Of a DNA stretch of 64,000 nucleotides, positions 9,393 through 37,672 are shown piece after piece; within the stretch, counting starts at the first letter, position 1; every line of letters starts with the position of its first letter. The DNA comes from Elsinoe ampelina (Eukaryota). The notes under the pieces were generated by a model. The model worked only from the letters and a program-made list of their open reading frames with translations. It was not told where the DNA came from and made no database searches. The position numbers and the translations under genes are program-made. Location: assembly GCA_010093995.1 (NCBI GenBank), contig ML992510.1, positions 199,504 through 263,503 of the forward strand, written 5' to 3'.

Positions 9393-11444
9393 TCATGTTT
9401 GATGACCTTGTACTAGCTGATCCCAGAAGGTCCAGTCGATGTTATCGAGGTTCATGTCCGTCTCCATGTTGAATTCCCCGATGCCAAATGGATCTTCGGC
9501 GTCCACTGGATGTTTGGGAGTCGCTCGACTTCCCATAACCGTATCCACTCGAGTCTCTGGTGTTGCAAGATCTTGAGTCACTAGGCTAGGTCGTTTGTAA
9601 TTCCTCAACTTGAGAACAAAGTCTGGTTGAATTGTGTCTCCAGTCCGTGGGTGGGCATCCCAAGCTTTGACGGCCAGTCGCCCGATCGCAGCGTAGAGAG
9701 CTTGCTTGAGCTCAAGAAATTCGCTGTGATCGTTATAGACTTGTTGAATCTTGTCCCAGGCAACATCGATCTGCTTCTGAGTAAGAGGCACAGACTCTGG
9801 CGATTGCAGACTAGTGAGAAGAAAGATGATGGAGTCCCATGAACCCCAAGCAAAGAACGATCTTGTGTGCCACATGAACCCCTTCACTCCGGCGTGGGCC
9901 CGCGCCGCAATATCAGTATCAAGAGTTTTGAGCGCCAATTGATATAGCTCTTTCCTGTCTTTCTCCGTGGAGATCTGATGTCGGACTCTGCCAAAGCGCA
10001 CTTTGATCCTCATAGCGGAGATGGCAGACCTTGATATTGCAATGGTCAAAAAGTGCAAAGGATTCACGATGTCGCAATAGCGGATGTACTTCTCTTCGAC
10101 TTCGGTTTCGGCATCCGCAATTATCCTCTCAATTTCCTCGGGCGACTGTTGATGCTTCACACCAGGCATAAGTAGTGTTCTTCCCGCTTTTGCAAAGACG
10201 CTTCCAGCACAAGCTCGCGCAAGGCAGAAGATCATCTCGGTAGCACCCTTTGTCTCCACGGGCTGTTCAGTCATGCCAGGCCATATCTGATCGTCGTTGA
10301 TATCGAGGGGTCGGATGGTATCCCAGCTGTCCGGGATGATACCAATGCCCGTGCCCGCCATCTGACTGGCCACTCCGTCAAGAGGGACCAATCGATAAAA
10401 GATACGTCGTCGCATCTGGATATCGAAGGGCGGCAGATTCAGACCCTCGCCATCTCGGTGGAGACCTAAACGCTGCGCAATTCTTGCCGCGACGCCCGTC
10501 AAAATCCAGTAGGTGTGCGAGTCGTAGTGGTGTCGACATGGCAAGAGAAACAAGATCAGTGCTTGTTCTACAATCAGCTCGGTAGTCTTCAAGAAAGTGG
10601 CATTGACTAAGGCTTGACGAGCTGCAAAGTGATACAGCTTGAGCTTGCGTTCCCTTGACCATCCTCGTTTCTCGCAGTCAGCGTCGGTCATGGAGAAGAT
10701 GGCGAAGTGATAGATCGCAAACAGTAAGCATTCCTCTCCTTTTGCTGCAATGATGGGTTCCTTTGAGATTGTCTTCAGCAGAGTTCCAGTAGATGGTACG
10801 TGCACCATCTTGATGAGAGGCTCGACATTGTCGCAATAAATATCCCATAGCAGCATCGCTTCTTGATGAGACGGATGTAGATCAGTCAGATCACGACGAT
10901 CACCTACCAGAGCTCCTGTAAGCGGGTCTTCGACGGCCATATCATGATGGGCATCAAGACCATCCGGTCCTTCGTTAGACAACTCCTCCATGTCATCTTC
11001 CCCGAGATTTCGCCAGAGACTCCCATCGATGTATCTCGTTTTGCCTTGACTGCTGAGCAGAGTGCCATTCTTAGACACTCCAGCGAAGTACCTCAAGGCA
11101 GTGTCCCCTTCTGGTAAGCCATCGAAGGCTTCAGCAGGGGCATGTTCGGTCTCTTGTGGGAGTAATCCATGCTGACTGAGGATACCCTCATAGCGTGCAA
11201 GCTTCTCATCAGCATCATTGCTCATCCGTCGCTTCCGACGTCGTGGGAGTGGCGCCTGATACGTGCAGTCGAGCTTGCTTTTGCGACATGTTGAGCATAC
11301 CGGGGCACTCTTGTCGCATTTCACCTTGCGTCGGGTGCATGTCTGACAAGCAAATGTCATTGTTCGGGCAGGTGGAGAGGCGGCATTGGCGCCAAGATGG
11401 GATGAATAAGCCGCCGGTGGCGTCGGAGCGAGCACGTTTGGCAT
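9393..11444 (-). CDS. Zn(II)2Cys6 transcription factor with Fungal_trans middle domain
   Basis: ACQTCTRRKVKCDKSAPVCSTCRKSKLDC and GVAARIAQRLGLHRDG..PPFDIQMRRR. Intronless. Start at ATG 11444 or 11360. Confidence 0.92.
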   Translation of the reverse strand: MPNVLAPTPPAAYSSHLGANAASPPARTMTFACQTCTRRKVKCDKSAPVCSTCRKSKLDCTYQAPLPRRRKRRMSNDADEKLARYEGILSQHGLLPQETEHAPAEAFDGLPEGDTALRYFAGVSKNGTLLSSQGKTRYIDGSLWRNLGEDDMEELSNEGPDGLDAHHDMAVEDPLTGALVGDRRDLTDLHPSHQEAMLLWDIYCDNVEPLIKMVHVPSTGTLLKTISKEPIIAAKGEECLLFAIYHFAIFSMTDADCEKRGWSRERKLKLYHFAARQALVNATFLKTTELIVEQALILFLLPCRHHYDSHTYWILTGVAARIAQRLGLHRDGEGLNLPPFDIQMRRRIFYRLVPLDGVASQMAGTGIGIIPDSWDTIRPLDINDDQIWPGMTEQPVETKGATEMIFCLARACAGSVFAKAGRTLLMPGVKHQQSPEEIERIIADAETEVEEKYIRYCDIVNPLHFLTIAISRSAISAMRIKVRFGRVRHQISTEKDRKELYQLALKTLDTDIAARAHAGVKGFMWHTRSFFAWGSWDSIIFLLTSLQSPESVPLTQKQIDVAWDKIQQVYNDHSEFLELKQALYAAIGRLAVKAWDAHPRTGDTIQPDFVLKLRNYKRPSLVTQDLATPETRVDTVMGSRATPKHPVDAEDPFGIGEFNMETDMNLDNIDWTFWDQLVQGHQT

Positions 11445-25631: not shown

Positions 25632-25865
25632 TGTTGACTTGTGTGGGGGAGGAAAAAGGATTAATTACTGCCTAAACCACCAAAATGAGGTAGATTGTAA
25701 CTATATAAATACTTAACCTAGTATACTAAAAGATAGCTAAATCAAAAGAACTCCTTAATAGCAATAGATTAAGACAATAACTATCTAATTTAATTATAAA
25801 TTAGTAGAGTAGTAGATAAGTGTTTAGTTCTACTAGGGGATAAACTAAATTAGGGTCCTTCTTAG
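25632..25865. repeat. Copia left LTR (runs into assembly gap)
   Basis: Colinear with 37413-37646; the differences are almost all C/T or G/A. Confidence 0.9.
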
Positions 25866-28070
25866 NNNNNNNNNNNNNNNNNNNNNNNNNNNNNNNNNNN
25901 NNNNNNNNNNNNNNNNNNNNNNNNNNNNNNNNNNNNNNNNNNNNNNNNNNNNNNNNNNNNNNNNNNNNNNNNNNNNNNNNNNNNNNNNNNNNNNNNNNNN
26001 NNNNNNNNNNNNNNNNNNNNNNNNNNNNNNNNNNNNNNNNNNNNNNNNNNNNNNNNNNNNNNNNNNNNNNNNNNNNNNNNNNNNNNNNNNNNNNNNNNNN
26101 NNNNNNNNNNNNNNNNNNNNNNNNNNNNNNNNNNNNNNNNNNNNNNNNNNNNNNNNNNNNNNNNNNNNNNNNNNNNNNNNNNNNNNNNNNNNNNNNNNNN
26201 NNNNNNNNNNNNNNNNNNNNNNNNNNNNNNNNNNNNNNNNNNNNNNNNNNNNNNNNNNNNNNNNNNNNNNNNNNNNNNNNNNNNNNNNNNNNNNNNNNNN
26301 NNNNNNNNNNNNNNNNNNNNNNNNNNNNNNNNNNNNNNNNNNNNNNNNNNNNNNNNNNNNNNNNNNNNNNNNNNNNNNNNNNNNNNNNNNNNNNNNNNNN
26401 NNNNNNNNNNNNNNNNNNNNNNNNNNNNNNNNNNNNNNNNNNNNNNNNNNNNNNNNNNNNNNNNNNNNNNNNNNNNNNNNNNNNNNNNNNNNNNNNNNNN
26501 NNNNNNNNNNNNNNNNNNNNNNNNNNNNNNNNNNNNNNNNNNNNNNNNNNNNNNNNNNNNNNNNNNNNNNNNNNNNNNNNNNNNNNNNNNNNNNNNNNNN
26601 NNNNNNNNNNNNNNNNNNNNNNNNNNNNNNNNNNNNNNNNNNNNNNNNNNNNNNNNNNNNNNNNNNNNNNNNNNNNNNNNNNNNNNNNNNNNNNNNNNNN
26701 NNNNNNNNNNNNNNNNNNNNNNNNNNNNNNNNNNNNNNNNNNNNNNNNNNNNNNNNNNNNNNNNNNNNNNNNNNNNNNAGTCTCTTTATTAGTCTATCCC
26801 TTATAACTTAGATAGCTAGAAACTAGCTTAGATCTTTAAGCACCTTTATCTTATATTTAGTATAGAGAGCTATAATAATAATATTAGCTTTCTCCTTATA
26901 CTTTTTAAGATATATAATAGTAATATTATCTACAAAGAAGAAGATTATTACTTTAAGTATTATCTAAAAATATAGAGCCTTAGGAGCTTAAGTAAATCTA
27001 ATACTCTTTAGAGTAGTAGTAAATTTAGTATACTAGAGAGCTAGAGCTTACTTTAGGCTATATAGTACCTTATTAAGTAATAGAATTACCTCTAATAGAG
27101 TAATACTAGGATAGTCCTTTATAAGATCCTCTACTACTAGCTTAAATCTAGTAGAGATAGTATAGTAGGTAGTCTTATTAATAGAACTATTAATATAAGT
27201 ATTAATAATATTTATCTAAATAGCCTTTATATCTTTATAAGTAAGTAATACTATAAGTATTTTAAAGATCTTAGCTACTAGAGTTACTATATAAGTCTTA
27301 GATTCTATTAATTAGAGATTACTACTTATATAGACTCTTACTTTATACTTTATAACCTCTCCTTTATTATTAACTTTATAAGTAAATACCTATATTAAAG
27401 AGATAGGCTTACTAGTAGCTTAAGCTACTAGTATAATAGTCTATATATATTTTAAGTATAAAGTAAGTAATTTAGCCTTTATAGCCTCTTAAAATTGCTT
27501 CTTATAAGGATAAGCTTTAAGTTCTTTAATATTAGCTAGTAGTAGTAGAAGATTATCTCTTAATTCTAGCTTAGGCTAAGTTAGTGTTATTAATAGATAA
27601 GTATTAAAGGCTTAGTAATATCTAGGAGCTTTATTAGTTTATATAAGAGTAGTAATATATACTTACCTTCTTAGTTTTCTTATTCTCTTTATTATAAAGA
27701 TATATTTAGGAAGAAGATTAGCTAACCTTATAGTAATTCTTTAAGGGAGTTACTTAGGCTAAGCTTTAACTACCCCTTTAGTCTAAACTTCTATCTTATC
27801 TCCTTTAGCTTTATCTCCTTCTAATAGTAGAGAAGATAGCTATACTACTATAGATAGTAGTAAAGCTAGAGTATTAAAGAACTATTTATTTAGTAAAGAT
27901 TCCTAGATCTAAGCTAGGTTTAGATCTAAAATAGCCTTATCTAATTAGTCTAATAAAGGTAGTAACTAATCTAGTATAATAGGGTAACTCTTATCTAGCT
28001 ACTAAGATAGGCTTAGCTCTTAATCTAGATTACTCTAACTTAGAGTCTAAGATAGTATCTAGTTTAGCTA

Positions 28071-28274
28071 CTAAACTAGATTCTAAACTAGATTCTAAAC
28101 TAGATACTAAACTAGATTCTAAACTAGATTCTAAACTAGATTCTAAACTAGATACTAAACTAGATTCTAAACTAGATACTAAACTAGATTCTAAACTAGA
28201 TACTAAACTAGATACTAAACTAGATTCTAAACTAGATACTAAACTAGATACTAAACTAGATTCTAAACTAGATT
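28071..28274. repeat. 12-bp tandem repeat (CTAAACTAGATW) x ~17 inside the copia pol region
   Basis: Directly visible; two unit variants ending TT or TA. Confidence 0.95.
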
Positions 28275-30322
28275 TAGTTTAGTTATTCTCTCTACTTTAT
28301 ATACCNNNNNNNNNNNNNNNNNNNNNNNNNNNNNNNNNNNNNNNNNNNNNNNNNNNNNNNNNNNNNNNNNNNNNNNNNNNNNNNNNNNNNNNNNNNNNNN
28401 NNNNNNNNNNNNNNNNNNNNNNNNNNNNNNNNNNNNNNNNNNNNNNNNNNNNNNNNNNNNNNNNNNNNNNNNNNNNNNNNNNNNNNNNNNNNNNNNNNNN
28501 NNNNNNNNNNNNNNNNNNNNNNNNNNNNNNNNNNNNNNNNNNNNNNNNNNNNNNNNNNNNNNNNNNNNNNNNNNNNNNNNNNNNNNNNNNNNNNNNNNNN
28601 NNNNNNNNNNNNNNNNNNNNNNNNNNNNNNNNNNNNNNNNNNNNNNNNAGTAGATAGCTTATAATAAATTCCTTTACTATCTAGGAAGATAGTAAATTTA
28701 AGGCTAAAGGCTCTCTTATTATTACTCCTAAGGAATCTAATTTTAAAACTAAAATTGCTTTTAATATAAGTAATTATCTTAATATAGATTTTATTAATCT
28801 TATATCTATAAGTATAAGTAGTAACTAGTTAATAGTTAGTAGTCCTATAAGNNNNNNNNNNNNNNNNNNNNNNNNNNNNNNNNNNNNNNNNNNNNNNNNN
28901 NNNNNNNNNNNNNNNNNNNNNNNNNNNNNNNNNNNNNNNNNNNNNNNNNNNNNNNNNNNNNNNNNNNNNNNNNNNNNNNNNNNNNNNNNNNNNNNNNNNN
29001 NNNNNNNNNNNNNNNNNNNNNNNNNNNNNNNNNNNNNNNNNNNNNNNNNNNNNNNNNNNNNNNNNNNNNNNNNNNNNNNNNNNNNNNNNNNNNNNNNNNN
29101 NNNNNNNNNNNNNNNNNNNNNNNNNNNNNNNNNNNNNNNNNNNNNNNNNNNNNNNNNNNNNNNNNNNNNNNNNNNNNNNNNNNNNNNNNNNNNNNNNNNN
29201 NNNNNNNNNNNNNNNNNNNNNNNNNNNNNNNNNNNNNNNNNNNNNNNNNNNNNNNNNNNNNNNNNNNNNNNNNNNNNNNNNNNNNNNNNNNNNNNNNNNN
29301 NNNNNNNNNNNNNNNNNNNNNNNNNNNNNNNNNNNNNNNNNNNNNNNNNNNNNNNNNNNNNNNNNNNNNNNNNNNNNNNNNNNNNNNNNNNNNNNNNNNN
29401 NNNNNNNNNNNNNNNNNNNNNNNNNNNNNNNNNNNNNNNNNNNNNNNNNNNNNNNNNNNNNNNNNNNNNNNNNNNNNNNNNNNNNNNNNNNNNNNNNNNN
29501 NNNNNNNNNNNNNNNNNNNNNNNNNNATATTACTAGTAGCTAAAATAAATACTAAGTATAATCTAATAGTAATAGCTATATTAATTAATACTAGTAGAGT
29601 TAACCCCTTCTAATGTTATACTTCCTTAGTAATAGAAGTCTTAATTTTCTCTTTAAGAGTCTTATTATTTAGCCTTTGTTTAACCTCCTTTATAGTCTAC
29701 TAGTTTAGTATCTATCCTTCTAGCCTTAGATACTTATTTAAGTAATAGTACTTAATCTACTTATACTAGCCTTAGTATATATATTTAGGCTCCCTAGAGG
29801 GACTAGGTTTCTTATAAAGAATATTCTTAGTAGCTATAGAGAAGGCTATAGCCCCCTTACTAGCCTTTATAGTACTATATAGCTTATAGAGTTTATAAAA
29901 CTGTCTAAACTTAGTAATTAGTTTAAGCATAGTTAGTAGAGTTAGTAAATTTAGATTAATAAGGTACTTATTAGTAAATACTAGTTTAGTCTTTAAGATA
30001 GAAAGTAAAAAGTCTCTCTATAGCCTTAAGCCTTAAGCTTCTAGTAGATTATAGTTCCTAGCCTTATCTATAACCTCTTTCTATTACTAAAGCTAATAGT
30101 CTATATTCTATAAGGAAGAACTAGATAGCTACTTTCTCTAAAGTGCTTTAACCTTAAGCTAAATAGCTATATTAGATAGAGCAAATCTGTTCTTTAAGAC
30201 TCGAAGAATAGCCTAGAGATAAGAATCCCCCTCTAGTTAGATAATAGTAAGAACTTATAGTATAATTAATAACTAAATAAGGCTAGCTAAATTAGCTAAG
30301 GTCTTATACTATTTATTATATT

Positions 30323-30509
30323 TATAAGGGCCTAGTATTAGGGCGGCACTTAGTAGCGGCTAGTCCTACTTACGTGATATACCTACTTATCTTACGTAGC
30401 GCTTACGCCTTAGACTTAATAGCAATTAGTTCTACTACTAACGGACTATTTAGTTAGATAGGCGTTCTCTATATTATAATATATATAGCTTTAATATAAG
30501 GCTTTAATA
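30323..30509 (+). repeat. Gypsy 5' LTR
   Basis: Direct repeat of 36826-37012. Confidence 0.92.
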
Positions 30510-33500
30510 GTTCTAATTACTCCCCTATAGTTATAATCTATTAGACCTTATAGACAACTAGAACTCTATTAGTAAGGCGCTAGCGCCTTACGTAATCGAT
30601 GTTATAGAGATAGACTCTATTAAGTAGACTCCCCTAGAGAAAGAAGAGACCCTTACGGAGTAGCTACTATACCTACGCACTAAGTATAAGTATTTAGAGC
30701 TAAAGCTCGAGGCTTAGAGCCTCGAGAAAGAGATTAAGTAAATATACTATGTACGTAATATAGGATACTACTAAGGAGGCTTCGACTATAGCTTATATAC
30801 TTCTACCGAGCCTATAGTAAGTAATACTAGTACGTAGAGCATACGTAGCGGTAGTAGACTATTTATAAGGCTATTCTCTAAATAATCTTAACTAAGGGAA
30901 CTCTATCTCTACTAGAGTAAGACTCTAAAAGAGGTAAGATTCTTCCTAAAGAATCTCGAGGTTATCTTTGCTCTAGCCTTTAAGGCTTATTCTACCGACT
31001 AGTAGAAGGTGCTCTATAGAGTTATATTTCTTATAGGTAAGCTAGATAAGATATAGTATTACTACTACTACGTAGATAGCCTAGAAGGCTATATATAGAA
31101 GTAATTCTACTAGTTCGTGTAGAATGTAGTTAATAACTCTATTAATTATAGAGTGCGCGTAACTCTCGTATATAAAGGAGCCTAATAACGTAAGGGCTAA
31201 TCTATCTAGGCCTTCGCCTCGGAACTTACTACCCTTAAGAAGTAACTAGCTTTCTACTCCAAAGAGTAGAGAGTATACTATCTCCTTACTAAGCTATAGC
31301 CTACGCTACGTATAACTATTATTAAATACTATACTATTCTAGCTACGCGCTAGGAGTTAGTCTCTTTAGGCTTATATATTAAGTCTATAGACTATACTAG
31401 TAGTAAGTGCACTATATAGAAAGATAAAAGTAACTACCTACGTAAGTATAGTAGTTATAGTAGCCCTTAAGGAGAATACTACTACTAGTCTAGTAGTAGC
31501 TCTTAAGCTCGCTATAAGCGCGAAGCTACTAACTTACCTATTAAATAGTTTAGTAGTTAGGGAGATTTCTCCGACAAGTAGAAGAGAGACACTAAGTGCT
31601 ATAGTTATAGTAAAACTAGTTATATTAAGCTAGAGTATAGGTCGAAGCACCTATAGAAGAATAGTAAGTCTTAGGCAATATATAAGGTTACTACTATAGA
31701 CAAGTCTAATAACTCTAAGTTAGGAAACTTTAAGAGCTTAGCTAAAGAGCGTAACTAAGCTCTTCTCCCTTTCTAATTAACGCTTATCTATTGCTACTCT
31801 ATTATAGCGCTATTATAGCGCCTACAGGGCGTAAAGACTATACATTTCTTATAGACAATTATATAGAAGTTAATCTTATATCTTAGGTATTTACTCTTCG
31901 TTATAATCTACTAAGGGTTAAGTATACTTAGTATTTAAGTATATCTTCCTTTATAGGGCAAGCCGGATTCTACTATAGTATATACTATCTTTGTATATGT
32001 CTAGTAGACTTCTATAGCGACCTTAGGGAGACAATTAGCCTCTTCTACGCTATAGACTTAGGACTAGGCTCTCTAGTTATTTTAGAGTACCTATAGCGGA
32101 GAAGATAATATATAATTATAGATAGCACTATAGATAACTAGTTATATAGCTACTTCTTATATATAGTTCACCTACGCGAACTAGAAGACTTTATAAAGGA
32201 CCTCTAGAATAAGCTAAAGATATATACTATAGTATAAACTCCGTCTAAGGACTATACTTATACTATAGACGACCTAGCTCTACTATTAGAGTTCGTAGAG
32301 TTCTTTAATATCTTTATCTATAAGAATATTATAAATCTACTATACCTACTAGGCGCTAAGTATATAATTAAGCTAGAGCTAGGTAGAAGGCCTCTATTCT
32401 AGCCCTTATATAATCTTTCAGTTAAGAAGCTTAAAGTACTTAAGGACTATCTCGAGACTACTTAATTAAATAGGTAAATTAAGTACTCTATAAGCGAGGT
32501 AGGTACTTCTATTCTATTCGTGCCTAAGAAAGACAGTAGTCTACGCTTATATATAGATTATTAGGGCTTAAACGAGGTAACTATTAAGAATTACTACTTG
32601 CTCCTACTTATTAGCGAGACGCTTAATTAGCTTAGGTAAGCCTAGTAGTTTTCAAAGTTAGATCTAAAGGATGTCTACTATAGGATCTCTATTAAGTATA
32701 GTAACGAGTAGAAGACTATGTTCTATATATACTATAGCTATTTTAAGTACTTAGTTATGCCTTTTAGATTAACTAATGCCCTAGCTACCTTCTAAGTGTA
32801 TATTAATAAGGCGCTAGGTAGGCTAGTTAATACTATCTATATTGTCTACCTTAATAATATTCTTATCTATAGCAATTTAAGGGAGAACTATATATATTAT
32901 ATTTATAAGATCCTAGCGAGGCTATAGAAGTTTACTTTATATATTAACCTTAAGAAATATAAATTCTTTACTAAGGAGGTAGAATTTCTTAGCTATATTA
33001 TCTCTACTATAGGCATCTCGATAGATCCTAGTAGAGTAACTATAATTAAGAATTAGCTAAGGCCGAAGAGTTATTATAAGGTCTAGTAGTTTACTAGCTT
33101 TATAAACTTCTATCGTTACTTCGTATAGTACTACTTTAAGATTATTACCTCTCTCTCTAGCCTCCTTAAAGGCTTAGTTAAAAGTTATAAGTATAGCTCT
33201 TTCGTGTAGGGTATAAGCGAATAGTAGACATTTAAGGACATTAGGGACGTATTTATACGTACCTCTATCCTTCGCTACTATAATTCTACGCTGCCCCTAC
33301 GTATTAAAAGTAATACGTTAAAGTTTATAGTAGTAGCAATTCTATCCTAACTATTCGATAGTACTTAGCACCTAATAGCCTTTTAGTTAAGGAAGTTTAT
33401 TCTAGCTAAGTATAATTATAAGACGCATAACTAAGAGCTATTAGCGATTGTATATATATTTAAGCAATAGCGATACTACCTCGAAGATACCTTATATATA

Positions 33501-35615
33501 ATTTAAGTACTTACTAACTATAACAATCTCTAAGGATTTATAAAGCTAAAATAGCTAAACGGCTAATAAGCTTACTAGGCTACCTTTCTTGCTACTTTTG
33601 ACTTTATAATAGAGTATTAGCTAGGCATAAGGAACCTAGCTAATACACTCTCGAGGCGCCCTAACTACATAGTAGAAGAGTAAGAGGTATTATACCTCCT
33701 TTCTACTCTTTAGAATAAGCTTCGTATATAGGACTAGACTACTAACATTAAGGAAGCTACTTCGCTTGTTAGATGTATCTACGCTATATATAAGACTACT
33801 CTAGGACAGGCCTAGGCTACCTATACGCTATATAGTAGTAACTTCTCTTCTAAGAACTTCTAGAGGCTTATAACGACCTAGCGAGTTATAGTTATAGCAA
33901 CTACAAGAGAGAATCTCTTTAAAGATCTATCTACTAACCTAATATTAGTAGTAGAGCTACTATAAGGATAAGACCCTAAGATTATAAAGCTACATTCGTA
34001 AGTAAGGAGTAGTAGAGACAAGAGTAAAGTACTATAGAATATATAAGATAATTTTCTCTTCTATAAAGAGTTACTAGTTATTCTAAATAATAGCGCGCTT
34101 AAGGTATAGGTACTATATATACACTATAATAGCGAATAGGCTAGTTACTTTAGTAAGGATAAGACACTTAAACTTCTCTTATAAAAGTACTTCTAGGCAA
34201 CTATAAGAAAAGACATTAATAACTATATATAGTTATACTAAGTATGCTAGAAATATAAGGCACACCGCTATTGCCTCTATAGCGAGCTACGTACGCTACT
34301 AATACTAGACTACCTATAGTAAGAAATTATAATAGATTTTATTACTAACCTACTACTAAGTAAGTAAGGTAGTAGCGTCTATAATATAGTACTAGTAATT
34401 ATAAACTATTACACTAAGATATTACTATATGTCCCTACTACTAAGAAGTGTATATCTATAGAGCTAGTAAAGATCCTACGTAACTACGTTATTTGCTATT
34501 ATAGTGTCCTAAGAGAGATAGTAAGTAATTAAGAATCGGTCTTTACTAGCTAGTTCTAGAGTAAATTCTGTTACAAAACGCGTGTAAAGCGTAGGCTTAG
34601 TATAGCCTTTTACCTATAGATAGACAGTTAAACTAAGTAGTAAAACTAGACATTAGAATAGTACCTAAGGTACTACTATATAGAGCTATAGAATAACTAG
34701 GCTAAATGTCTATTATAAGTGGAATTTGTAAGTAATAATAGCATTTATACTACGCTACGTATAAGCCTCTTCTAAATAATATATAGCTACTATCTAGAGT
34801 TAGAGGTAATAGCTATTAAGTCTTAGGACAAGACTTTAGAGAGAAGAGTACTAGTAGTAGTAGAGTTAGTATAACACTTACGAGATATATATACGAAGCT
34901 AGTAGAGTAATAGAAAGAGGCTTCTACCTACTAGGCTAAGTACTATAATAGGAAGTATACGCTAAGGGTATATAGTATAGGTAACTTAGTACTACTCTCG
35001 GCTAAGAACTTATAGCTACCTATACTAAAGAAGAAGATAGAACTACAATTCCTTAGCTTATTTTACATACTTAATATAATTAGATTATAGGCGTATCGCC
35101 TAGCTTTACTAAGTTAGTATTATATCTATAATATCTTTTATATATCTCTTTTTAAACTATAGATAGGTAGAGCTAGTAAGAAGCTAGAAGAGAGTATACC
35201 TCTCGCTAACGAAGTAGATAAGTAGATAGTAGAGAAGATCCTAGGTAAGAGAACTACGAAGAGTAAGGTATTCTACTTAGTAAAGTAGAAGAACTAGTCT
35301 ATCGAGTTTAATAGCTAGGAACCTAAAGAGAATTATATAAATATAAGAGAGCTAATTACTATATATAAGTTATAGCTAAGAGTAGCTAAGAAAGGTTACT
35401 AAAGGTGCGAATTATAGAGCATATAAGTAGACAGATTATATAAACATATAAATAGGGCAAAGAGTAGACTCCTTATCTAGGGAAATATATTTTAATAAAG
35501 CGCTATACTTACGCTACTATTACAGGTATTAACCTAAACTCTATACTCTATTATACTCTATATAAGGCCTTATTATAGGTATAGCGCTAGAGATATATAC
35601 TTAGCTTATATATGC

Positions 35616-36411
35616 CTACTTGTCCTTACTATCCTCCTTGTCTACCTCTATACTAAGATTCTCCTCTATAAGTACTATAGGGGCTATAAGCTACCTACTA
35701 GCTATAATATAGTTAATTTCGGTAGTAGAACTACTAGAGTTATATACTATCTAAACCTATTAGCCGTGTTTATAACGTATAAGGAGTATAGTCTAACTTA
35801 CCTCCTTACTAATAGTAATTAAGCTATAAAGGCTACGCCTAATCTTCTATAGCTCCTTAACCTTCTCGCGCTCGAGTGTAACACTACTAAGTAAGCCGCC
35901 TATAAGCCCTATATAAGAAGTTAAGACCTTACCGATAACCTTATTCTTGTTAGTGTAGTATACCTTAAGTATAGTCTTAAACTTCTTAACCTTAGGGACG
36001 TTCTTATAGGCTATAGTATATATATACTTCTTAGCTGTAGTAATACTAGCCTAGTCGAGGGCCTTAAGCTTAGTAACTGTGTTAAAAGCGTTAATATATA
36101 CATTATATAGGATAGATAGAAGCGGCTCGTATATATACTTACTATAGGCGTAGTGTTTATACTTATAATAGAAGAAGATACTAAAGTTGCCTCTAGTATA
36201 GATATAACCTACTACGAATTAGTTATGTCCCTTATAAGAGCTCTATTAGCTTACCCTTAGTAACGCTATTAGCGCACCTAGTATAGGTATTAGCCTTCTC
36301 TTTAGGAAGTAAAGGGGTTATAGAGTCGGCGCTAGCGGCAATAGCTCTCTAGGCGCTAGCTAACCTTACGCTATAAGTGTTAGCTATAAGAGAGCTAGAG
36401 TTAGATAATAT
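35616..36411 (-). pseudogene. RIP relic of a spliced antisense gene within the gypsy element; Zn2Cys6-like N-terminus
   Basis: ~230 codons with only five internal stops, all TAG. Two introns: 36209-36254 (GTAAGC..CTAAT..TAG) and 35757-35801 (GTAAGT..GCTAATAG). Tyr/Cys spacing x2-x9-x12-x2-x6. Confidence 0.6.
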
Positions 36412-36825
36412 AATAGTTATAGGTAGTATACTTATATAGTAAAAAGTTAATAAAATATAAATGTGTTTTAGGTAGAAAAGAAGAATATAAGGGGAAATAA
36501 CAAGATTATATAGACTAACCTCTAGTACACTATATCTTTGTTATAGCTACTAGTATAAGGCACACGTCTCCTATAATACTACTAGGAATTCTAAGAAAAG
36601 TAATATTGTTACTACTAATTAGCTTTAGTACTATAGCGACTAGATAAACGCCCCTATAGGAACTAGATCCCCGGGACTACTACTACTAGACATTATATAA
36701 GACATATATAAGGCCTTTATAAAAATGCCTTAACTACCTTATATCTATATTACCTCCGAATAACACTATATATTATATAGTTCTAGTTAAGAGCTAAGAA
36801 TAGCTCTCCTAGAGAAGAAGGCAAT

Positions 36826-37012
36826 TATAAGAGCCTAGTATTAGGGCAGCACTTAGTAGCGGCTAGTCCTACTTACGTAACGTACCTACTTATCTTATAT
36901 AGCACTTACGCCTTAGACTTAATAGTAATTAGTTCTACTACTAACGAACTATTTAGTTAAATAGGCGTTCTCTATATTACGATATATGTAGCTTTAATAT
37001 AAGGCTTTAATA
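36826..37012 (+). repeat. Gypsy 3' LTR
   Basis: Direct repeat of 30323-30509, preceded by AGAGAAGAAGGC PPT-like tract. Confidence 0.92.
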
Positions 37013-37412
37013 ATATTATACTTGTTTCTTCTTATATATCTAAAAGAGTACTAAAAAGTTAATATTTACTACTTTTAGCCTCTAAGACTTAGAAAGCCCT
37101 TCTAGTTTAATAGTCTTCTAGGGATTAATAAGGTTCTATATCTTAGTATTTAATACTCTTATCTTAATAATATATAGCTAGCTAGCCTATTTAGCTAATG
37201 TAGTAAGAATAATAGGTGTTCTAGCTATTAAGGTATTAGTATCTATAGTTATTTATTTCTTTATTAACACCTAAATCCTATAGTTATATAAGGTAGTTCT
37301 TAACAGATTCTAATACTTAAAAAGTAAGATAGTAGAGAATTAACTAATAAATAGAGTAGGAAAGTAACTAAGTAATATACTTATATAGGGGTAGTTATAC
37401 TAGGCTTATAAC

Positions 37413-37672
37413 TATTAACTTATATAGGGGAGGAAAAAGGATTAATTACTACCTAAACTACTAAAATAAGGTAAATTATAACTATATAAATACTTAACCT
37501 AGTATACTAAAAGATAGCTAAATTAAAAGAACTCCTTAATAGCAATAGATTAAAACAATAACTATCTAATTTAATTATAAATTAGTAGAGTAGTAGATAA
37601 GTGTTTAGTTCCACCAGGGGATGAACTGAATCAGGGTCCTTCTTGGCGCTCCAGCTTATACCTCGGTTGACA
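37413..37672. repeat. Copia right LTR (260 bp)
   Basis: Matches the left LTR, ends GTTGACA and is followed by TSD ACTTT. Confidence 0.9.

Follow-up and report, generated by a model that had tools for sequence, protein, structure and literature searches.

The closest described counterpart of the gene reported here is brtn, a gene in antisense orientation between pol and the 3' long terminal repeat (LTR) of Boty, a fungal, chromodomain-bearing Ty3/Gypsy retrotransposon; in the passages available from four papers, its description is credited to Zhao et al. 2011, Virology 417:248 (PMC8365987, PMC7264820, PMC4227169, PMC5987419). As far as these passages go, one of the papers groups brtn with antisense open reading frames (ORFs) located between pol and the 3' LTR (PMC7264820), and the Boty copy treated in another has a CHROMO domain (PMC4227169). 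Plant retrotransposons also carry antisense ORFs between pol and the 3' LTR. According to the same partial source, these are found in Grande, RIRE2, Retand and PvRetro13, are of unknown function, and are conserved within families about as much as other element proteins (PMC7264820); Retand is placed in a non-chromovirus lineage in an excerpt of PMC11963269. The present study concerns a 64,000-nt stretch of Elsinoe ampelina DNA (GenBank assembly GCA_010093995.1, contig ML992510.1, positions 199,504 to 263,503, forward strand), hereafter the window. It contains a chromovirus degraded by repeat-induced point mutation (RIP) in which the space separating pol from the 3' LTR holds the remains of a spliced gene for a six-Cys protein, oriented opposite to gag-pol.

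The gene resembles brtn in its carrier, a fungal chromodomain-bearing Ty3/Gypsy element, and in being an extra antisense gene at the same position. With brtn, the literature already has an antisense gene at this position, and the six-Cys gene is a variant of that kind, compared with BRTN by description only. Whereas brtn was described from Botrytis and Sclerotinia, the two named homologues found here come from Elsinoe fawcettii and Alternaria gaisen, which we take to be Dothideomycetes. A profile search of 5.8e9 proteins with the family described below returned no match named BRTN, which is a weak negative, since the search requires shared 5-residue words. The plant ORFs have the same position and orientation as the window gene; they differ in their plant hosts, and no six-Cys domain is mentioned in the part of PMC7264820 that was available. 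Searches of the open-access literature listed no title or abstract on a six-Cys gene of this orientation in chromoviruses of fungi, and the word "antisense" occurs 0 times in "LTR Retrotransposons in Fungi" (PMC3248453).

We interpret the segment between pol and the 3' LTR as a RIP-killed copy of an accessory gene that probably belongs to this ascomycete chromovirus lineage. The key evidence is an intact homologue. When the TAG stops of exon 2 (Table 1) are read as X, a phmmer search of 1.84e9 representatives gives a single match at an expectation value (E) of 1.3e-6. This match, P0001 (KAF4546987.1), is an un-RIPped hypothetical protein of 213 aa from Elsinoe fawcettii. It is 32% identical to exon 2 over 133 columns (BLASTP), shares the motifs GNFS, TNKNK and EKVKEL.KIRR with the window, and carries C-x2-C-x9-C-x12-C-x2-C-x6-C. 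The pattern is identical to that which the initial annotation, made without database searches, had derived from the window by reversing RIP. The homology also settles the strand as minus. The complementary plus frame is rather open as well, with 4 stops per 135 codons, so openness alone could not settle it.

P0001 is linked to the nearest relative of the window's pol. Its accession is consecutive with that of P0002 (KAF4546986.1), a "Tf2-5 polyprotein-like" protein of Elsinoe fawcettii, and both are listed with a longest contig of 18192 nt. P0002 is the best database match of the window pol (E 1.9e-283, 47% identity, 100% of the query), and the two are sisters in the pol tree with a support of 100. 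In the tblastn alignment, P0002 residues 2-1176 match 31845-35369 at 46% identity. Pol relatives, P0002 included, carry PF00078, PF17917/19, PF00665 and PF00385 (reverse transcriptase, RNase H, integrase and chromodomain). The window element is identified as a chromovirus by its LTR pair and target-site duplication and, through the homology to P0002, by this domain order. A DNA contig from the same organism runs from 30317 straight on to 37013, with 5 nt common to both sides; it represents the empty site and thereby confirms the bounds of the element. The TA...TA ends of the LTRs are consistent with RIPped TG...CA. Because pol homology stops at 35369, a segment of about 1.44 kb (35370-36810) is not explained by gag or pol, and the antisense gene lies within it.

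Table 1. Coordinates of the chromovirus and of its antisense gene in the window.
Feature	Position	Strand	Basis or remark
Chromovirus element, full extent	30323-37012	+	RIP-degraded Ty3/Gypsy
Target-site duplication ATATT, 5' copy	30318-30322		identical 5-mer at 37013-37017
5' LTR, 187 nt, TA...TA ends	30323-30509	+	direct repeat pair, 93% identity, alignment
pol (protease-reverse transcriptase-RNase H-integrase-chromodomain)	31845-35369	+	single frame full of TAA/TAG stops; tblastn with P0002
Antisense gene, whole	36411-35616	-	between pol end 35369 and polypurine tract 36811
Exon 1	36255-36411	-	translation; aligns with P0001 residues ~17-41; start codon and 5' end uncertain
Cys1 codon, now TAT	36285-36283	-	exon 1
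Cys2 codon, TGC retained	36276-36274	-	exon 1
Intron 1, 46 nt, GTAAGC...TAG	36209-36254	-	sequence and spacing; CTAAT near 3' end; frame-shifting; inside Cys2-Cys3 loop
Exon 2: Cys3-Cys6, helical middle, conserved helix with EKVKEL.KIRR	35802-36208	-	phmmer; BLASTP
Cys3-Cys6 codons, now Tyr codons	36200-36198, 36161-36159, 36152-36150, 36131-36129	-	exon 2
Intron 2, GTAAGT donor, in frame	35751-35801	-	sequence; acceptor 35757 or 35751 (45 or 51 nt)
Exon 3: acidic C-terminal tail and TAG stop at 35618-35616	35616-35750	-	translation
Polypurine tract AGAGAAGAAGGCAAT	36811-36825	+	read directly, adjoins 3' LTR
3' LTR, 187 nt	36826-37012	+	direct repeat pair, 93% alike
Target-site duplication ATATT, 3' copy	37013-37017		matches 30318-30322

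The spliced minus frame contains 4 or 5 internal stops, depending on whether intron 2 is 51 or 45 nt long, and all of them are TAG; intron 2 itself contains 4 stops, among them the only TAA. Across all six frames of the element, only seven windows of 135 codons have as few as 2 stops. Among the windows listed, 35796-36200 on the minus strand has the fewest, and the best window in pol has 3. The homology to P0001 resumes after intron 1 in another frame, and an intron of 46 nt is the only choice that brings back the x9 loop of P0001. When the spliced window frame was aligned with P0001 by script, the residues opposite the seven Cys of P0001 were Y, C, Y, Y, Y, Y and Y. Thus, Tyr now stands at five of the six motif positions and at the position of P0001's seventh Cys, with Cys kept at a single motif position. 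Tyr makes up 9.5% of the window frame, and by our own arithmetic the probability of finding Tyr at six of six such positions by chance is about 7e-7. At position 36275, within the retained Cys2 codon, other genomic copies read T on the plus strand, which turns the codon into TAC (22 contigs). With five of six motif Cys replaced by Tyr and 4 to 5 TAG stops, the window copy is dead. A Pfam search of the RIPped exons returned only chance rows (Imm26 and LAGLIDADG_2).

Tyr residues were also seen at Cys positions of the domain elsewhere. The 84-aa protein P0143 and the translation of L063:8284-8367 (-) have CxxY and Y for Cys5 and Cys6, a sequence pattern that suggests RIP-type decay in those copies too.

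The segment is a regular part of the element. In the window's genome, the element is high-copy, with 6506 contigs matching it at a likeness of at least 80%, and the differences among them are almost all transitions. Contig depth over 35348-36751 equals that over gag/pol, showing that other copies carry the segment and that it is part of the element family, not a passenger of one copy. The RIP signature is strong. The GC content of the window is about 0.5-0.6, except in a block at 25.5-39 kb, where it is 0.05-0.39. The TA/AT index is 2.1 in this AT-rich block versus 0.61 in the flanking DNA, and the (CA+TG)/(AC+GT) index is 0.18 versus 1.14. Taken with the LTRs, the target-site duplication and the homology to P0001, these indices bear out the initial annotation in placing a RIP-killed, intron-bearing, minus-strand gene inside a chromovirus. 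Its other structural readings held as well, namely ~1.4 kb outside gag/pol between the chromodomain and the 3' LTR, an open minus-strand frame with two GTAAGy introns and only TAG stops, and a helical segment followed by an acidic tail, both of which are conserved in relatives.

The distribution of the gene was assessed in 80 loci of pol relatives from Joint Genome Institute (JGI) metagenome contigs, which were scanned with six pol relatives. A hidden Markov model of the Cys region is significant in seven loci: the seeds L004, L006, L008, L012, L061 and L079, and additionally L020 (E 2.3e-6). In all seven, the Cys-region exons are antisense to pol. A relaxed six-Cys pattern occurs on the minus strand of 15 loci versus 2 on the plus strand, and one of the two plus-strand matches is an ordinary host Zn2Cys6 gene. 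Thirty loci extend 1200 nt or more past the pol C-terminus; the domain is present in 11 of these and, in a permuted or upstream position, in four further loci. In L006, L008, L020, L061 and L079, the domain lies 0.6-1.0 kb past the end of pol. In the pol tree, Cys-bearing elements fall on both sides of the midpoint root. The patchy presence of the gene reflects either an old gene with losses or members that escape detection; the pattern search misses intron-split or RIPped versions, and the window's own copy would escape it too. The contigs of L020, L061 and L079 are permuted or collapsed, running from the pol C-terminus through the antisense gene to gag and the pol N-terminus. L004 and L012 are probably also circularly permuted or tandem contigs, as expected if two LTRs collapse in assembly.

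Intact relatives are ~210-230 residues long and consist of an N-terminal six-Cys domain, a helical middle that includes a single conserved helix, and an acidic tail. The layout of the domain is C-x2-C, a long loop, C, a loop, and C-x2-C-x6/7-C, and in an alignment of eight sequences no column other than the six Cys is invariant. Acidic tails are present in P0001, P0142, L006, L020, L061 and L079. P0142, a hypothetical protein of 226 aa from Alternaria gaisen, was added by the profile search of 5.8e9 proteins, which gave 7 hits, most of them unnamed fragments matching element loci. Only two named database proteins of the antisense family were found. In seven of the seven exons examined, a GT donor lies exactly 2 codons past Cys6 and is followed by an intron of 45-60 nt, after which the next exon starts with [IV]P. 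A CTRAY motif is found 13-16 nt ahead of the acceptor in five of the seven introns. In L020, L061 and L079, a helical exon and a second intron precede the acidic tail, and this intron is at a place equivalent to intron 2 of the window. The annotated splicing of P0142 agrees with the first and last junctions predicted for L079, and P0142 is without a stretch of the predicted exon B of L079. The first intron is placed differently in the window, inside the Cys2-Cys3 loop versus 2 codons past Cys6 in the seven loci, and the window gene has no intron at the latter place.

Codon-position differences were counted in four pairs of loci. Differences at third versus first/second positions number 54 versus 26/24, 45 versus 24/25, 54 versus 28/24, and 48 versus 29/25, so that in each of the four pairs the third position has roughly double the differences of the first or the second. 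The minus frame therefore shows the substitution pattern expected of purifying selection. Contig depth, linkage to pol and third positions together document conservation of the antisense ORF among copies and related families, and inside the window element the ORF lies between pol and the 3' LTR, opposite to gag-pol.

Several observations weigh against the interpretation of the segment as an accessory gene of the lineage. No domain is detectable in 19 of the 30 loci that extend far enough past pol, and one 16-row clade of the pol tree is without any Cys-bearing member. These absences imply that the gene is dispensable or replaceable for some relatives. LTR pairs were searched for in L006, L008, L020, L061 and L079 and none was found, and the location inside an element is consequently shown only for the window. 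The strand and LTR context of the Elsinoe and Alternaria genes are read from accession order only, and the start codon and 5' end of exon 1 are uncertain. Contigs of three presumed-RNA runs contain no match to 30200-37200, a result that is uninformative on expression. Searches for a function were similarly unrewarding. In 18 members tested against Pfam (P0001, P0142 and 16 locus translations), no match at threshold names a function; a sequence profile search of the PDB returned only a LIM domain and ribosomal protein L40 (E 2.6-3.4); and a Foldseek search with a model of P0001 found nothing at E<=1e-3. That model, made with AlphaFold 2 (AF2), has a mediocre predicted local distance difference test (pLDDT) score of 66 for whole P0001, and the score is 53 for the domain alone (L004 exon), too low for a useful structure search.

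Other searches started from P0001 were also limited in yield. A homologue search with P0001 alone found only P0001 itself, a metagenome scan with the alignment of P0001 and the window gave 593 pattern matches, 0 of which were confirmed, and the whole P0001 protein matched only unnamed Ascomycota clusters in the ESM Atlas (score 0.91). VIA structure comparison was filled by the helical hairpin 70-138 (Z up to 6.7) and is uninformative for the Cys domain. A predicted homodimer of P0001 residues 25-178 with zinc scored 0.02, which is not evidence either way.

The nature of the six-Cys module bears on what the gene does. It could be a zinc-binding protein- or RNA-interaction domain, possibly distant kin of DUF3716, within an adaptor or chaperone whose tail binds histones, Gag or integrase, or counters host silencing; we consider this account rather unlikely. 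In the part of PMC8232023 that was available, DUF3716 (PF12511) is a fungal Cys-containing domain found in REP9-1 and REP9-2, accessory genes of a Class II transposon of Zymoseptoria tritici. The two cases are alike in that a transposon accessory protein without a known function carries a small, Cys-bearing fungal domain; they differ in that the Zymoseptoria carrier is a DNA transposon, not a retrotransposon. The only Pfam lead in the family is to PF12511, in L018:2878-3129 (-), with 13.1 bits and E 0.092, and a DUF3716-bearing Ascomycota cluster ranks third in the Atlas named search, with a score of 0.77 and the family on 28% of its members. The widely varying loop lengths, which we judge unusual for a sequence-specific DNA reader, also fit this account. 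Both leads, however, are below every threshold (the 22-bit cut-off of PF12511 and the Atlas score of 0.9, under which scores are leads only), the other 17 of the 18 members give no DUF3716 match, and no partner is known.

The product could instead be a true Gal4/Zn2Cys6 member with a lengthened first loop, which would dimerize on CGG-type sites and activate through its acidic tail. We regard this as improbable. The initial annotation had read the window motif as a Gal4-like binuclear cluster, and this part of it found no support. The first half of the Zn2Cys6 signature in PROSITE is C-x2-C-x6-C, and in the fold a pair of short helices surrounds two zinc ions, with each helix beginning at a C-x2-C. 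The family shares with Zn_clus (PF00172) six invariant Cys, two C-x2-C halves and fungal hosts. Its second half is C-x2-C-x6/7-C as in Zn_clus, with x6/7 in the eight aligned sequences and x5-x8 when the pattern is relaxed. Helices 32-40 and 58-63 of the AF2 model for P0001 begin at the two C-x2-C, where pLDDT is 62-81. Foldseek gives a weak row to the Zn2Cys6 domain of Pho7 (6e33_A), with E 5.2, a TM score of 0.49 on the target, a root-mean-square deviation of 2.7 over 46 columns, and rank 39. The helical region and acidic tail also resemble the layout of fungal activators. Nevertheless, none of the 18 members matches PF00172 at E<=10 (gathering score 21 bits), whereas a positive control, L006:9824-11008 (+), matches at 29.3 bits and E 8.9e-7. 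The Cys2-Cys3 loop is never 6 residues long: it is x9 in the window and in P0001, x10-x15 in the seven close loci, and as long as x30 in more distant ones. An hhalign comparison of the family alignment with only two canonical domains, a weak test, gives a probability of 0.4% and aligns the last C-x2-C-x6-C only. The PDB profile search found no Zn2Cys6 chain, and no Zn_clus cluster is among the matches listed by the Atlas named-cluster search. Membership of the antisense protein in the Gal4-type zinc-cluster family is not supported.

The positive control is itself a host gene with Zn_clus and Fungal_trans_2 domains, located ~1.2 kb from the antisense six-Cys gene of L006. A canonical Zn2Cys6 motif, C-x2-C-x6-C-x6-C-x2-C-x6-C, occurs at 11256-11357 (-), in a GC-rich part of the window. 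It served as one of the two comparators and presumably belongs to an ordinary host transcription-factor gene.

A different origin, that of a captured host gene kept as a passenger after recent transduction and without a role in the life cycle of the element, strikes us as quite improbable. Intron-bearing genes in retroelements can arise by capture of genomic DNA, and the absence from 19 of the 30 loci discussed above would suit a passenger. Nevertheless, the pol tree has carriers of the gene on either side of its midpoint root, and the carriers include elements with pol identities of only 43-53%. The only detected relative of the window gene is encoded next to the nearest pol, so in that pair the two have travelled together. 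Furthermore, the third-position excess points to selection, and the 7 hits among 5.8e9 proteins include no free-standing family of host paralogues.

That the open minus frame arose by chance from the biased composition of RIPped DNA, or that the real reading is a plus-strand extension of pol with no antisense gene, is exceedingly improbable and in our judgement already refuted by the homologue, the donors, the loci and the codon positions: the plus frame continuing from pol is indeed rather open, and RIPped DNA is Tyr-rich, so that Cys patterns can be cherry-picked, but an independent homologue has the exact predicted Cys pattern, the family occurs in 15 loci and always antisense to pol, donor sites are conserved, the codon-position pattern fits the minus frame, and pol homology stops at 35369.

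Some features of the surroundings were noted in passing. A second pair of direct repeats, 230 nt long and 93% alike (25634-25863 and 37415-37644), brackets the whole AT-rich block, and the chromovirus is accordingly nested in another repeat. The outer host repeat is seen without the chromovirus insertion in one contig of the same genome. Positions 26000-30000 form an extreme AT stretch (GC 0.05-0.26) with a tandem array at 27999-28309 of ~17 overlapping copies with a 12-nt period. In the P0005 pol cluster, P0126 is a full-length fungal-type chromovirus pol that is labelled at NCBI as coming from an Oxalobacteraceae bacterium metagenome-assembled genome; a eukaryotic contig was probably placed in a bacterial bin.

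Reading the segment as a RIP-killed accessory gene of the lineage allows us to propose how such a gene would operate. Its transcription would start at a separate promoter near the 3' LTR. Since the genomic RNA represents the opposite strand, the antisense introns would be unseen by the spliceosome during retrotransposition and would persist. HBZ of human T-cell leukaemia virus type 1 (HTLV-1) is a spliced antisense retroviral gene that encodes a bZIP protein and has its own promoter near the 3' LTR. By analogy, both would be minus-strand retroelement genes with a promoter near the 3' LTR, the introns of which survive for the same reason; HTLV-1 is an animal retrovirus and HBZ a bZIP protein, and the analogy is one of logic only. 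The product may act in trans in the nucleus for the element. Its six Cys quite likely bind zinc, and the product most likely regulates the transcription or silencing of the element by binding nucleic acid or chromatin. A DNA-binding activator is a tentative form of this proposal, and a non-DNA adaptor or anti-silencing role is a rather doubtful one. A bolder extension, which we think unlikely, is that the whole ascomycete chromovirus lineage encodes its own trans-acting zinc-cluster factor from an antisense, intron-bearing gene, with a six-Cys DNA-binding head, dimerizing helices and an acidic activation tail, and with sites in the LTR or in host promoters. If true, these retrotransposons would carry a regulator comparable to the accessory genes of retroviruses, and this lineage-wide factor might connect, in evolution, DUF3716-like transposon genes with the zinc-cluster factors of fungi.

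To our knowledge, LTR retrotransposons are usually thought to need gag and pol only. A conserved, selected and intron-bearing antisense gene with a putative zinc-binding head and an acidic tail, distributed across a deep branch of the fungal chromoviruses, would mean that these elements bring their own nuclear factor. The window gene is also a worked case in which a Tyr-for-Cys reading of RIPped DNA can recover the motif of a dead protein. It bears on why annotation overlooks an antisense gene of this kind and on the origin of lineage-specific, cysteine-rich "hypothetical proteins" of fungi. It further bears on element activation or escape from silencing in plant-associated fungi, where such elements build AT-rich, RIP-affected compartments.

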